DNA of 64,000 bases, from assembly GCF_054482595.1 (NCBI RefSeq), contig NZ_CM137008.1, one strand, 5' to 3'. This document shows, piece by piece, positions 3,860 through 14,860 of the stretch. The position numbers were made by a program, and so were the translations under genes. The notes under the pieces are model-generated. The model did no database searches. It saw nothing but the letters and a program-made list of their open reading frames with translations, and was not told the origin of the DNA. How positions within the stretch are numbered: position 1 is the stretch's first letter; every line of letters starts with the position of its first letter.

Positions 3860-4585
3860 TCACGCCTGACGGTGCGATGAGTAATGTATTTCATACTCTT
3901 CCCGGTAGAGAGTTTCCCCCCAAAGAACCGGTTTATTCTCAGCAGTCAAATAAGTATGTTGTCGTACCAGAATTGGGCGGGAACGCTTTATTTTCAGCTT
4001 CTGGGCCGCATCCCGGCTGGGCAGCGCCACATGAACCTGGTTGGCAATTGTCTGTATCTCTATGCGAAGTGCCTGCTCAAAAATGTTTTGCAACGCATGG
4101 ACTTCCAGTTCCTGCTTATCTATTTGCAGGGCAAGAATTGAAGGCATATAACGAATTTCGAATGCAATTGGCTGCTGATTTATCAAGCGCAACCTTAACA
4201 GCCGATGGATGCTCTCTTTGCCTGATAACATCAGTTTTGTCCGTAAGAGTTCTGACGTTGAGACAGGTGCGAATTCGACGAGTTGATATTCGAGGTGTTT
4301 GTCGACACCAACCAGATCTTTTTCAAAAAATCCAAGAGATTGCGTATCCATTACGGTGATAATGGAAGGTTTTTTAACGAAGGTTCCACGTCCCCGAATG
4401 CGTTCAATCAATCCATCCGTAAGAAGACCCTGCATCGCATGGACCACTGTCGCTCGGGTGGTATTAAATTGGGCTGCAAGTTCGTTTTCAGAAGGTAAGC
4501 GTTCGCCTTGTTTATATACATTTTGTGCTATTCCATTGCGTAATGCTTCTCTGATCTGCAGGTAAATTGGCAAATTGCGATGCAT
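3860..4585 (-). CDS. GntR family transcriptional regulator (HutC/FarR subfamily, UTRA effector domain)
   Basis: 241 aa; N-terminal winged HTH motif (LPSENELAAQFNTTRATVVHAMQGL) followed by a UTRA-like C-terminal domain; divergent from the downstream operon. Confidence 0.85.
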   Translation of the reverse strand: MHRNLPIYLQIREALRNGIAQNVYKQGERLPSENELAAQFNTTRATVVHAMQGLLTDGLIERIRGRGTFVKKPSIITVMDTQSLGFFEKDLVGVDKHLEYQLVEFAPVSTSELLRTKLMLSGKESIHRLLRLRLINQQPIAFEIRYMPSILALQIDKQELEVHALQNIFEQALRIEIQTIANQVHVALPSRDAAQKLKIKRSRPILVRQHTYLTAENKPVLWGETLYREEYEIHYSSHRQA

Positions 4586-4608
4586 GTCAAATTAATCCTT
4601 CATTCTAA

Positions 4609-4630
4609 GTTGCATAGTCAACTATACAAC
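4609..4630. promoter_or_regulatory. near-palindromic 22 bp candidate operator in the divergent promoter region
   Basis: gttgcatagtcaactatacaac is an imperfect palindrome in the 122 bp intergenic region between the GntR gene and the amidohydrolase gene. Coordinates approximate. Confidence 0.3.
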
Positions 4631-4707
4631 TTCAAGGGTGACGGTATGTCATTTTAGCAGATATCACCTTCAGGTGTGGTCAGTTAAACATAAATGAGTT
4701 AGAGAAA

Positions 4708-5505
4708 ATGATTTTTGATACGCATGCGCATGTTTTTGTTCGAGGATTACCATTAGCGGAACATTGCCGATATGTTCCTGATTACGACGCCACACCGGAG
4801 AGTTATCTGACTCACTTGGATCGGTTTGGCATTGATGTTGGTATTCTGGTGCAACCCAGTTTTCTGGGGACGGATAACCACTATATGCTTGAGGCTCTTC
4901 GCCGTTACCCTACCCGGTTTCGTGGTGTAGCCGTTGTGGATCCAAACATTACGCGCTGTAAACTGGATGAAATGGCAAAATTAGGGGTCACTGGTATCCG
5001 CTTAAATTTAGTCGGCGTGGAAATTCCCGATCTTACGCAACCTGCATGGCAACACCTGTTAGAACATATTAAAGCCCTGGGATGGCATGTTGAGCTACAC
5101 AGAGCTGCGCGCGACTTGCCAGCGTTAATTACGGTATTACTTAAATCCGGTGTAAAGATTGTCGTTGACCATTTCGCGTTGCCTTCTCAGGAAGAGAAAC
5201 AAAACGATCCCGGATTTCAGTTTCTCCTTGAGCATGCAGAAACGCAGCAAATCTGGTTGAAACTTTCTGGCGCCTATCGCAATGGCAGTACTGAAACTCT
5301 CAACGATAACGTGGCACCGTTAATTCCTCTCCTGCTGCAGCATTTTGGACCTGCACATTTATTGTGGGGTAGCGACTGGCCACATACTCGATACGAAAAT
5401 GTCGTCAATTATCAAAAAACGTTCGAGTTACTGACGCAGCAAATACCTGATAAAGAAATGAGAAATAAAATTTTATCGGTTAGTGCAGAATCACTTATCG
5501 ATTAG
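4708..5505 (+). CDS. Amidohydro_2 family metal-dependent hydrolase (lactonase/decarboxylase-type TIM barrel)
   Basis: 265 aa; N-terminal DTHAHVF metal-binding motif and C-terminal WGSDWPH motif characteristic of the amidohydrolase-2 (LigI-like) family. Confidence 0.8.
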   Translation: MIFDTHAHVFVRGLPLAEHCRYVPDYDATPESYLTHLDRFGIDVGILVQPSFLGTDNHYMLEALRRYPTRFRGVAVVDPNITRCKLDEMAKLGVTGIRLNLVGVEIPDLTQPAWQHLLEHIKALGWHVELHRAARDLPALITVLLKSGVKIVVDHFALPSQEEKQNDPGFQFLLEHAETQQIWLKLSGAYRNGSTETLNDNVAPLIPLLLQHFGPAHLLWGSDWPHTRYENVVNYQKTFELLTQQIPDKEMRNKILSVSAESLID

Positions 5506-12123: not shown

Positions 12124-12148
12124 ATCATTAATATATCCGGAGTTAACT

Positions 12149-14746
12149 ATGTTAAAAGAATACCGTAAGCATGTAGCTGAGCGTGCCGCTGAGGGGATTG
12201 CGCCCAAACCCCTGGATGCAAACCAAATGGCCGCGCTTGTAGAGCTGCTGAAAAACCCGCCCGCGGGCGAAGAAGAATTCCTGTTAGATCTGTTAACCAA
12301 CCGTGTTCCCCCTGGCGTTGATGAAGCCGCCTATGTCAAAGCAGGCTTCCTGGCTGCTGTCGCCAAAGGTGAAGCCAAATCCCCACTGCTGACACCGGAA
12401 AAGGCCATCGAACTGCTGGGCACCATGCAGGGTGGTTACAACATTCATCCGCTGATCGACGCGCTGGATGATGCCAAACTGGCACCGATCGCTGCCAAAG
12501 CACTTTCTCACACGCTGCTGATGTTCGATAACTTCTATGACGTAGAAGAGAAAGCCAAAGCAGGCAACGAATATGCGAAGCAGGTAATGCAGTCCTGGGC
12601 GGATGCCGAATGGTTCCTGAATCGCCCGGCGCTGGCTGAAAAACTGACCGTTACCGTCTTCAAAGTCACTGGCGAAACCAACACCGATGACCTCTCTCCG
12701 GCACCGGATGCGTGGTCACGCCCGGATATCCCACTGCACGCGCTGGCGATGCTGAAAAACGCCCGTGAAGGCATCGAGCCAGATCAGCCTGGTGTTGTTG
12801 GCCCGATCAAACAGATTGAAGCTCTGCAACAGAAAGGTTTCCCGCTGGCGTACGTCGGTGACGTTGTGGGTACGGGGTCATCGCGTAAATCCGCCACGAA
12901 CTCCGTTCTGTGGTTTATGGGCGATGATATTCCACATGTGCCGAACAAACGCGGCGGTGGTTTGTGCCTCGGCGGTAAAATTGCACCCATCTTCTTTAAC
13001 ACGATGGAAGATGCGGGTGCACTGCCAATCGAAGTCGACGTCTCTAACCTGAACATGGGCGACGTAATTGACGTTTACCCGTACAAAGGTGAAGTGCGTA
13101 ACCACGAAACCGGCGAACTGCTGGCAACCTTCGAACTGAAAACCGACGTGCTGATTGATGAAGTGCGTGCTGGCGGCCGTATTCCGCTGATTATCGGGCG
13201 TGGCCTGACCACCAAAGCGCGTGAAGCACTTGGCCTGCCGCACAGTGATGTGTTCCGTCAGGCGAAAGATGTCGCTGAGAGCGATCGCGGCTTCTCGCTG
13301 GCGCAGAAAATGGTAGGTCGTGCCTGCGGTGTGAAAGGCATTCGTCCGGGCGCGTACTGCGAACCGAAAATGACTTCTGTAGGTTCACAGGACACCACCG
13401 GCCCGATGACCCGTGATGAACTGAAAGACCTGGCGTGCCTGGGCTTCTCGGCTGACCTGGTGATGCAGTCTTTCTGCCACACCGCGGCGTATCCGAAACC
13501 AGTTGACGTGAATACGCACCACACGCTGCCGGACTTCATTATGAACCGTGGCGGTGTGTCGCTGCGTCCGGGTGACGGCGTAATCCACTCCTGGCTGAAC
13601 CGTATGCTGCTGCCGGATACCGTCGGTACCGGTGGTGATTCCCATACCCGTTTCCCGATCGGCATTTCTTTCCCGGCAGGCTCCGGTCTGGTGGCATTTG
13701 CTGCTGCAACTGGCGTCATGCCGCTGGATATGCCGGAATCCGTTCTGGTGCGCTTCAAAGGCAAAATGCAGCCGGGCATCACCCTGCGCGATTTGGTACA
13801 CGCTATTCCGCTGTATGCGATCAAACAAGGTCTGCTGACCGTTGAGAAGAAAGGCAAGAAAAACATCTTCTCTGGCCGCATCCTGGAAATTGAAGGTCTG
13901 CCGGATCTGAAAGTTGAGCAGGCCTTTGAGCTGACCGATGCGTCCGCCGAGCGTTCTGCTGCCGGTTGTACCATCAAGCTGAACAAAGAACCGATCATCG
14001 AATACCTGAACTCCAACATCGTCCTGCTGAAGTGGATGATCGCGGAAGGTTACGGCGATCATCGTACCCTGGAACGCCGTATTCAGGGCATGGAAAAATG
14101 GCTGGCGAATCCTGAGCTGCTGGAAGCCGATGCAGATGCGGAATACGCGGCAGTGATCGACATCGATCTGGCGGATATCAAAGAGCCAATCCTCTGTGCT
14201 CCGAACGACCCGGATGACGCGCGTCCGCTGTCTGCGGTACAGGGCGAGAAGATCGACGAAGTGTTTATCGGTTCCTGCATGACCAACATCGGTCACTTCC
14301 GTGCTGCGGGTAAACTGCTGGATGCGCATAAAGGCCAGCTGCCGACCCGCCTGTGGGTGGCACCGCCAACCCGTATGGACGCCGCGCAGTTGACCGAAGA
14401 AGGCTACTACAGCGTCTTCGGTAAGAGTGGTGCGCGTATCGAGATCCCTGGCTGTTCCCTGTGTATGGGTAACCAGGCGCGTGTAGCAGACGGTGCGACG
14501 GTGGTTTCCACCTCTACCCGTAACTTTCCGAACCGTTTGGGTACTGGCGCGAATGTCTTCCTGGCTTCTGCGGAACTGGCCGCTGTTGCGGCGCTGATTG
14601 GCAAACTGCCGACGCCGGAAGAGTACCAGACCTACGTGGCGCAGGTAGATAAAACCGCCGTTGATACTTACCGTTATCTGAACTTCAACCAGCTTTCTCA
14701 GTATACCGAGAAAGCGGATAGGGTGATTTTTCCTAGTGTGGTTTAA
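12149..14746 (+). CDS. acnB: aconitate hydratase B (bifunctional aconitase / 2-methylisocitrate dehydratase)
   Basis: 865 aa, full length and recognised as AcnB along its whole length; GGAG RBS 7 nt upstream; begins only 26 bp after the citG stop. Confidence 0.95.
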
Positions 14747-14762
14747 GAAGTCAGTGTGCTGC

Positions 14763-14860
14763 GTATAAAAAGCTAATACCAGGCTGCCTGTCATATCGAT
14801 TTCATGCAGGATAAGTAGAACTCCGTCTAATCTAGACGGAGTTCTATTGTATTGATGGCT
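14763..14860 (+). mobile_element. IS66-family left-end/leader fragment containing a perfect 13 bp-stem palindrome (about 14817..14845)
   Basis: Sequence from about 14763 resembles the left terminus and tnpA leader of the IS66 copy at 26006-26088 (gtaNacgtaaag... then tagaactccgtctaatctagacggagttcta followed by ATG); begins about 17 bp after the acnB stop. Coordinates approximate. Confidence 0.4.

Follow-up and report, generated by a model that had tools for sequence, protein, structure and literature searches.

A lactonase-type hydrolase and carrier joined to citCDEFXG and acnB on a tRNA-Phe island of Escherichia coli: a candidate operon for lactone catabolism through aconitase and citrate lyase

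Positions 3860–14746 of a 64,000-nucleotide (nt) stretch of Escherichia coli DNA (contig NZ_CM137008.1 of RefSeq assembly GCF_054482595.1; the whole stretch is called the window) carry a putative operon in which a complete set of citrate lyase genes and an aconitase B gene are placed behind the genes of a lactonase-type hydrolase and a carrier. A GntR/HutC-type regulator gene (3860–4585) is on the minus strand. The other genes are on the plus strand: a lactonase-type amidohydrolase gene (4708–5505, 265 amino acids [aa], PF04909), an MFS carrier gene (5537–6886, 449 aa, NCBIfam), the full-length open reading frames (ORFs) of citC (6892–7947), citD (7962–8258), citE (8255–9163), citF (9174–10706), citX (10710–11261) and citG (11236–12123), and acnB (12149–14746, TIGR00117). 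A first-pass annotation, made from the letters of the window, had proposed this gene map. Every ORF was found at the position that it had given, in the ORF list, in the translations and in the RefSeq annotation of the 100% identical locus of E. coli GTEN_97. The tight junctions that it described were also borne out on measurement: 5 nt lie between the MFS stop codon and the citC ATG, and 25 nt, with a GGAG ribosome-binding site, between the citG stop codon and the acnB ATG. Neither citT nor dpiBA (citAB) was found in the module, as it had stated too, or elsewhere in the 64-kb window.

The citCDEFXG set is complete and intact, comprising the CitC ligase, the CitD acyl carrier, the CitE beta and CitF alpha subunits, CitX and CitG. 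CitC scored 590 bits against TIGR00124 (cut-off 262). AcnB scored 1716 bits against TIGR00117 (cut-off 1287) and 1575 bits against NF006690 (cut-off 782). The G+C content is 44.9% in the front part of the module, from the GntR gene to the MFS gene, versus 55–56% in cit and acnB, and the same step was seen in every sister locus described below. On the plus strand 3' of acnB lies a perfect 16-bp hairpin (14814–14849; centroid structure, z-score −3.7), kept in both E. coli island lineages. It is probably the operon terminator, with a weak U-tract. An Rfam scan gave no match inside the module.

The regulator has a Pfam GntR domain (3.6e-18) followed by a UTRA domain (8.3e-23), which is the HutC-type architecture; its scores against the HutC/PhnF-like NCBIfam models were all below the cut-offs. 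Every enterobacterial locus has retained the regulator gene, always in divergent orientation to the lactonase gene. The palindromic candidate operator of the first-pass annotation was located by computation at 4607–4632 (no strand) as the inverted repeat AAGTTGCATAGT-ca-ACTATACAACTT, whose 12-nt arms are 92% complementary. In 6 loci from 5 genera its core motif, GTTGnATAGTCAAC, is conserved between the regulator and lactonase genes, and it is present twice in loci that have a CitMHS carrier. The helix-turn-helix and UTRA domains, together with this conserved palindrome as candidate operator, fit the HutC type of the GntR family, and the protein is presumed to be the repressor of the operon.

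The hydrolase matches PF04909 at 1e-43 and has 5,979 relatives at E ≤ 1e-20. The nearest solved structures are 2FFI from Pseudomonas putida and 4I6K from Acinetobacter, both structural-genomics targets without an assigned function, and some solved relatives are labelled 'putative PDC hydrolase'. The deposited 4I6K structure may contain bound citrate, a point that is given no weight here. The next-nearest characterised relatives, LigI, Atu3138 and L-fucono-1,5-lactonase, all act on lactones. An AlphaFold (AF2) model of the protein, with a predicted local distance difference test score (pLDDT) of 91, was compared with known structures by Foldseek. The template modelling (TM) score was 0.95 to 4I6K and 0.82 to LigI. 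The hydratase LigJ, at rank 45 in the search, and the decarboxylases of PF04909 were far more distant (TM ~0.62–0.68, root-mean-square deviation >6 Å). Residues H6, H8, R98, H155 and D223 align with H31, H33, R124, H180 and D248 of LigI, the His/His/His/Asp plus Arg set. These five residues are invariant across the orthologue alignment, as are several further Arg and Lys residues, which would be suited to a polycarboxylate. LigI converts a dicarboxy-lactone to a tricarboxylate by ring opening. The hydrolase differs from LigI in that the identity is only ~25% and in its partners, which are LigJ and LigK there and aconitase and citrate lyase here.

PF04909, the TIM-barrel fold and the HxH...H...D set place the protein with the cog3618/LigI-like enzymes. 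Its scores against the named lactonase equivalogs fell well short of the cut-offs, at 137 bits for the 4-sulfomuconolactone hydrolase model SlmHylase (cut-off 500) and 24 for the L-fucono-1,5-lactonase model FuconLaconase (cut-off 400). Thus, as modelled, the hydrolase is a lactonase-type enzyme of the cog3618 branch, of the metal-independent type, and is none of the named equivalogs. Its predicted substrate is a carboxylated lactone, whose ring it would open; the likeliest candidate is isocitrate gamma-lactone. The first-pass annotation had cast this Amidohydro_2 protein as the ring-opening enzyme, and the lactonase branch with its conserved LigI catalytic residues speaks for that assignment.

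For the carrier, NCBIfam models of the PgtP and D-galactonate transporter subfamilies were matched, none of them above cut-off. The protein appears to belong to an anion-transporting OPA/ACS-like branch of the MFS and is presumed to import the substrate. Enterobacter, Intestinirhabdus, Hafnia and a metagenome contig have carrier orthologues of 76–92% identity, and in each case their gene comes after that of the lactonase. In other sister loci the carrier is of the CitMHS family, members of which take D-isocitrate besides citrate (PMC7419537).

The 11.4-kb block, counted as present at ≥80% query coverage, was found in 30 of 5,426 complete E. coli genomes and was always chromosomal. Its unique GntR–lactonase–MFS part occurs in 32 E. 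coli genomes at ≥99.5% identity, again only on chromosomes, and had no match among the PLSDB plasmids in a distant blastn search. Among the carriers are human, avian and water isolates of sequence type (ST) 38, ST70 and O157:H16, and the module stands in at least two different contexts of insertion sequences (IS). One plasmid cit match (H9, 80.8% identity) was rejected, being a Citrobacter-type dpiAB-citCDEFXGT block unrelated to the module. A separate observation concerns the 300-kb conjugative IncHI1A plasmid NZ_LR890350.1 of E. coli (L004), which carries a Citrobacter-type dpiAB-citCDEFXG-citT-rna-...-rnk-uspG segment between IS26 copies; this is another, unrelated route by which citrate fermentation genes move.

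The same linkage was then sought in other taxa, by exact-protein look-ups via lactonase orthologues and, for further contexts, via MFS orthologues. In an Enterobacter sp. the regulator gene and the lactonase-MFS-citCDEFXG genes are collinear with window positions 3866–12295 at 79% identity, with the same MFS–citC junction and the same ribosome-binding-site junction between citG and acnB. Only ~150 bp of the acnB 5' end follow citG there (L006, 9068–9240), with an in-frame TAG and a 1-nt insertion, and in an Enterobacter chromosomal copy (L005) no citC gene was called, so that the Enterobacter version seems to be decaying. Citrobacter amalonaticus and Salmonella enterica subsp. salamae have the regulator and then lactonase-CitMHS-citCDEF(X)G-acnB-oadGAB. 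In Klebsiella oxytoca the order is acnB, the regulator and then lactonase-CitMHS-citCDEFG-oadGAB. Recurrence of the linkage, proposed as a check by the first-pass annotation, was thus found both within E. coli and in Enterobacter, Citrobacter, S. enterica subsp. salamae and Klebsiella.

Smaller versions were also found. Intestinirhabdus alba has the regulator, lactonase and carrier genes by themselves. In Hafnia paralvei (L099, 5623–11341) these three genes are immediately downstream of, and divergent from, the housekeeping acnB, in the order aceEF-lpd-acnB, regulator, lactonase-MFS ... yacL. In a metagenome contig (L101, 9079–15265) they are upstream of acnB and co-directional with it (lactonase-MFS-acnB-yacL). 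Escherichia fergusonii has the three genes with CitMHS replacing the MFS carrier, beside a LysR/7-bladed lactonase/CitMHS/aconitase/PrpF/YbhJ cluster. Three Veillonella species have a CcpC-like LysR regulator followed by CitMHS, the lactonase and a YbhJ-type hydratase of the aconitase family. Coupling of the lactonase to aconitase-family genes, citrate lyase genes or both therefore occurs in at least six arrangements in Enterobacterales and Veillonella, and, judged from this distribution, the linkage predates the E. coli copy.

A scan of one genome per species gave at least 80 further loci at 45–52% identity, with no Enterobacteriaceae among the matches listed. For 80 fetched loci, clusters were built from the ORFs no more than 5 kb from the lactonase, and the lactonase family was recovered in 60 of these loci. 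The only conserved neighbours in the clusters were an MFS carrier, of the aromatic-acid/MHS type, in 39 loci and a regulator of the GntR/UTRA (29) or LysR (13) type. The aerobes among the matches listed (Burkholderiaceae, Pseudomonas, Bradyrhizobium, Variovorax and others, many of which are associated with plants) have the regulator, carrier and lactonase only, the lactonase being the sole enzyme. As far as gene neighbourhoods tell, the conserved unit is a three-gene core of regulator, lactonase and transporter.

A larger cluster adjoins the core in K. oxytoca (L008, 1–8966) and E. fergusonii (L010, 13009–20795). It encodes a LysR regulator, a pgl-like lactonase with a 7-bladed propeller, CitMHS, a 648-aa aconitase, a PrpF/OMA-tautomerase-like isomerase, the YbhJ hydratase, an Iso_dh-family dehydrogenase and AcnB. 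The cluster is an enlarged form of the ybhD-ybhHIJ locus of E. coli, which is itself uncharacterised, and may specify a second pathway for a tricarboxylate or a lactone.

The question raised by the first-pass annotation, whether the genome has a second acnB and a second cit locus, was answered in the affirmative for genomes with the block. Genomes that carry the block have at least three matching places each, against a median of two over all genomes. The usual two places are the native cit and acnB loci, and the native cit locus of the carriers is deduced from these place counts. In one carrier, GTEN_97, the native lpdA-yacH-acnB-yacL locus was located directly.

The island copies are close to the native ones. 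Over 6898–12104 the island citCDEFXG is 97.8–97.9% identical in nucleotides to the native genes of K-12, with 0–9 amino-acid changes in each protein, versus 80% identity to the Enterobacter module. The island acnB is 96.6–96.8% identical to native acnB, and its protein differs at 8 positions (M1V, K3E, V71I, H638R, R858G, P862Q, S863T and V864A). The stretches that do not resemble E. coli are at the gene ends: ~8 codons at the start of citC, ~6 at the end of citG, the spacer between citG and acnB, the first three codons of acnB and four of its last eight residues. The citG end and the spacer resemble the Enterobacter module. Foreign ends around E. coli-like interiors suggest gene conversion by native alleles. 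In the most economical account, the interior of a foreign cit/acnB segment was overwritten by resident E. coli alleles, in tracts that end where homology ends. Divergence between the two island lineages of E. coli rises from ~0.4% in the GntR–MFS part to 2.0% in cit and 2.8% in acnB; at most of the differing sites one of the island copies has the K-12 allele. Since the native acnB genes of K-12 and GTEN_97 are themselves 2.9% different, the island acnB alleles fall within the allele cloud of the species. One result speaks against this history: the island acnB has 86 differences to the native allele of GTEN_97 and 83 to that of K-12, and so is no closer to the allele of its host. Recent conversion by the present host is ruled out by these counts. 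The exchange would then be historical, with its direction unproven.

These results suggest a pathway in which a carboxylated lactone would be brought in by the MFS carrier and its ring would be hydrolysed by the LigI-like lactonase to a tricarboxylate, isocitrate or a close relative. The AcnB of the operon would convert isocitrate through cis-aconitate to citrate. Citrate lyase (CitDEF, with CitC, CitX and CitG for its maturation) would then split citrate into acetate and oxaloacetate, and oxaloacetate would feed the normal fermentative branch to succinate. We give a probability of roughly 0.6 to the operon being one of GntR-repressed lactone catabolism through aconitase and citrate lyase. The first-pass annotation had offered this lactone-to-citrate-lyase route, and it gained ground from the orthologues, which repeatedly adjoin aconitase-family and citrate lyase genes, and from the aerobes, which need no further enzyme. 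Native citCDEFXGT answers external citrate via DpiBA, and acnB is a gene of the tricarboxylic acid (TCA) cycle that is down-regulated anaerobically. A lactone-responsive operon would therefore need its own copies, and the private acnB and citCDEFXG would place both activities under the lactone-responsive regulator. Co-transcription, the flux direction and the history of gene conversion are our inferences. Because the island AcnB and citrate lyase hardly differ from the housekeeping enzymes, they should act on the canonical substrates.

Aerobes would carry only the core, since its product would itself be an intermediate of the TCA cycle. Anaerobes, both facultative and strict, would have joined the core repeatedly to aconitase-family enzymes, citrate lyase and oxaloacetate decarboxylase. 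Isocitrate gamma-lactone is the simplest fit to an invariant lactonase, to aerobes without a downstream enzyme and to the coupling in anaerobes; as the specific substrate it is a tentative choice, held at somewhat less than even odds. Isocitric lactone is a known dietary and urinary metabolite in the metabolomics literature. A wider proposal is likewise possible and falls a little short of an even chance as a whole. In it, the 265-aa protein would be the first isocitrate-lactone hydrolase and the core a widespread plant-lactone route, spanning Burkholderiaceae, Pseudomonas, Bradyrhizobium, Enterobacterales and Veillonella, extended in enterics to anaerobic fermentation, with the gene copies kept similar by gene conversion.

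Several observations weigh against the lactone pathway or against isocitrate as its intermediate. A consensus scan gave no convincing sigma-70 promoter upstream of the lactonase gene; the promoter/terminator scan did no better than on shuffled sequence, and overlooked the hairpin after acnB. Veillonella pairs the lactonase with a YbhJ-type hydratase and not with a canonical aconitase, and in K. oxytoca and E. fergusonii the core stands beside the PrpF/YbhJ/Iso_dh cluster, so that the true product could be a non-standard tricarboxylate. Intestinirhabdus and E. fergusonii have the core without citrate lyase at the locus. The substrate itself is deduced from gene neighbourhood and family chemistry alone. 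The YbhJ, PrpF, Iso_dh and extra aconitase genes next to the core, and YbhJ in Veillonella, are also what would be expected if hydroxycitrate lactone (hibiscus or garcinia acid), or another plant tricarboxylate lactone that does not yield D-isocitrate, were the substrate. The lactone and tricarboxylate logic would be the same, and the module is enriched in plant-associated genera among the matches listed. Nevertheless, AcnB and citrate lyase that are near-identical to the housekeeping enzymes and tolerate replacement by native alleles point to canonical substrates, and aerobes without an extra enzyme are unexpected for hydroxycitrate; we regard such a substrate as improbable. A free acid (isocitrate, cis- or trans-aconitate, or citrate) could also be what is fermented, with the hydrolase as an accessory that salvages spontaneously formed lactone or acts as a hydratase or isomerase of aconitate isomers. 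AcnB and citrate lyase suffice for isocitrate or aconitate, the CitMHS family of the sister loci transports citrate and D-isocitrate, and PF04909 also includes the tricarboxylate hydratase LigJ. However, an accessory would hardly be the invariant enzyme of the core, always first in the operon and the sole enzyme in aerobes, and its fold and catalytic residues match lactonases (TM 0.82–0.95) better than LigJ and the decarboxylases (TM ~0.62–0.68). This alternative is unlikely, though it is the best placed of those weighed here.

The lactonase and carrier might instead handle an unrelated compound, for example 2-pyrone-4,6-dicarboxylate (PDC) or the lactone of a sugar acid, and be chance neighbours of a duplicated citrate block. 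The 'putative PDC hydrolase' labels, the G+C step and the loci with the core alone would agree with this. Yet the association recurs in at least six arrangements, the spacing of 5 nt is operon-tight, genes for LigJ, LigK or a sugar-acid dehydratase were not seen in the vicinity, and the G+C step is found in all sister loci as well, which leaves chance proximity with a small probability. Smallest of all, and close to nil, is the chance that the locus is an assembly artefact or a single IS-driven relocation of the housekeeping cit and acnB genes. The first-pass annotation had raised misassembly or IS-mediated rearrangement as a caveat, and the IS on both sides and the 97–98% identity of cit and acnB to the native genes give it some appeal. 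It is refuted by the identical block in 30 independently finished chromosomes of several lineages and hosts, by the retained native loci, and by the same junctions, that of citG and acnB included, in Enterobacter at 79% identity. Lactone catabolism through aconitase and citrate lyase is the preferred explanation of the operon.

The module was compared with known citrate systems. The E. coli citCDEFXG-citT locus with dpiBA has a lyase set ~98% identical to the present one, which comes without CitT and DpiBA. The Klebsiella citS-oadGAB-citAB locus with citCDEFG differs in having CitS and CitAB; oadGAB is found in the Citrobacter, Salmonella and Klebsiella sister loci. Relative to these canonical loci the module has a GntR/HutC regulator, the lactonase, an MFS carrier (CitMHS in sisters) and an in-operon acnB. 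By its gene content the locus falls outside the canonical citrate fermentation type, while the Cit set and AcnB themselves are ordinary members of their families. The closest regulatory analogue found is the cit locus of Enterococcus faecalis (citHO / oadHDB-citCDEFX-oadA-citMG), with the GntR-type regulator CitO and a CitMHS carrier (PMC3198936). The two appear alike in a divergent GntR-family regulator, a carrier (of the CitMHS family, as in the sister loci) and citrate lyase. The E. faecalis locus differs in being without lactonase and aconitase, and citrate is there both inducer and substrate.

Feeder modules for unusual tricarboxylates, such as the PrpF-type aconitate isomerase for trans-aconitate and tcuRABC for tricarballylate, provide another comparison. 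Like the aerobe core, they consist of a regulator, a carrier and one enzyme that converts the substrate to a TCA-cycle intermediate. They differ from it in the enzyme family, and the enterics studied here add the anaerobic exit through citrate lyase. No report of the operon, of an isocitrate or hydroxycitrate lactonase or of a function for 2FFI or 4I6K was found in the full-text literature searched, a scope outside which most subscription journals lie, so that this negative carries little weight. A preprint on P. putida was set aside, as it deals with unrelated genes. The term 'isocitric lactone' occurred in the searched literature in metabolomics papers only. With its lactonase/carrier front end and built-in aconitase, this citrate lyase operon appears to be new, and the chemistry extends known themes.

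If the proposed pathway is correct, a function would be given to a large clade of 'amidohydrolase family' and 'putative PDC hydrolase' proteins, the orphan structures 2FFI and 4I6K included. It would be a new catabolic route for a common derivative of a plant and dietary acid that is also found in human urine, and would explain the extra acnB and citrate lyase genes of some E. coli lineages. The operon would also be a case of regulatory rewiring by duplication, in which housekeeping enzymes are copied into a substrate-specific operon and the island paralogues evolve in concert with the core genes. The near-identical island/core repeats of 5 kb and 2.6 kb could drive chromosomal rearrangement. 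DL-isocitric acid lactone is sold commercially, so the prediction is cheap to check.

The first-pass annotation had described an IS-bounded, mobilised module, and IS sequences do lie on both sides of it, on a tRNA-Phe island. The left border in this lineage, outside the operon, is ISEc38 of the ISL3 family (1827–3548, minus strand), with a transposase ORF at 1855–3474 and 23-nt inverted repeats at 1827–1849 and 3526–3548; it is annotated in the identical locus. The ISL3 element named as left border was thus correctly placed, but the border is more complex, ISEc38 lying inside an IS21/IS100 remnant (1810–1826 and 3549–3597) whose ends were matched in the second lineage (L014, strain 10). These IS100kyp-like, IS21-family ends flank ISEc38 without a target-site duplication, and in strain 10 the same IS100 is intact and on the other side of the module. 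On the right is an IS66-family remnant with the terminal repeat and the 3' part of tnpC (14954–15570, minus strand), a pseudogene in the identical locus. Its terminal repeat (GTAAGCGGCTCGTCAG...) begins at ~14954, and plasmid IS66 matches start at ~14938. The first-pass annotation had put this end ~17 bp after the acnB stop codon; the distance measured was ~207 nt, a stretch that is conserved in both lineages of E. coli. The window lineage therefore has IS66 on the right and the IS100 remnant with ISEc38 on the left, with no target duplications seen, versus an inverted IS66 end on the left and a right IS66 end interrupted by IS100 in strain 10.

A tyrosine integrase gene (58163–59428, minus strand, from the annotation) and a tRNA-Phe gene (59626–59701, minus strand, called by ARAGORN and Rfam) lie at the far end of the window. 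Beyond the integrase, the identical region of GTEN_97 has the core genes dicD-dsbD-cutA-dcuA. The whole window is a tRNA-Phe genomic island, with the integrase and tRNA-Phe at its attachment end. In E. coli, the module would have arrived as an IS-bounded cassette on this island and would then have been overwritten by E. coli alleles.

Other genes of the island were noted in passing. Directly downstream of the cit module (19415–24076) are malX (IIBC component of a phosphotransferase system), a MalY/PatB-family gene and a gene for a 637-aa protein annotated as 'enterotoxin', which are typical pathogenicity-island markers. According to the annotation, positions 26349–29996 encode an amidohydrolase of the M20 type (436 aa), a C4-dicarboxylate carrier of the DcuC type and, divergently, a LysR regulator; this block is flanked by IS66 pieces (~24404–26003 and ~30104–31753), an IS66-cassette pattern like that of the cit module. 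The region 42033–46197 has mtnK and mtnA, for methylthioribose kinase and the isomerase, together with genes for a fuculose-phosphate-aldolase-like protein and a GRP sugar transporter; it resembles the 5'-deoxynucleoside/methylthioribose 'DHAP shunt' salvage cluster that has been reported from extraintestinal E. coli. An additional ompC porin gene (47396–48508) adjoins a copy of ISEc16. Finally, sgcR, yjhI, yjhH, yjhG, yjhF, yjhU and truncated sgc genes are found inside the island at ~34000–41992, genes that are part of the leuX/KpLE2 region in K-12.

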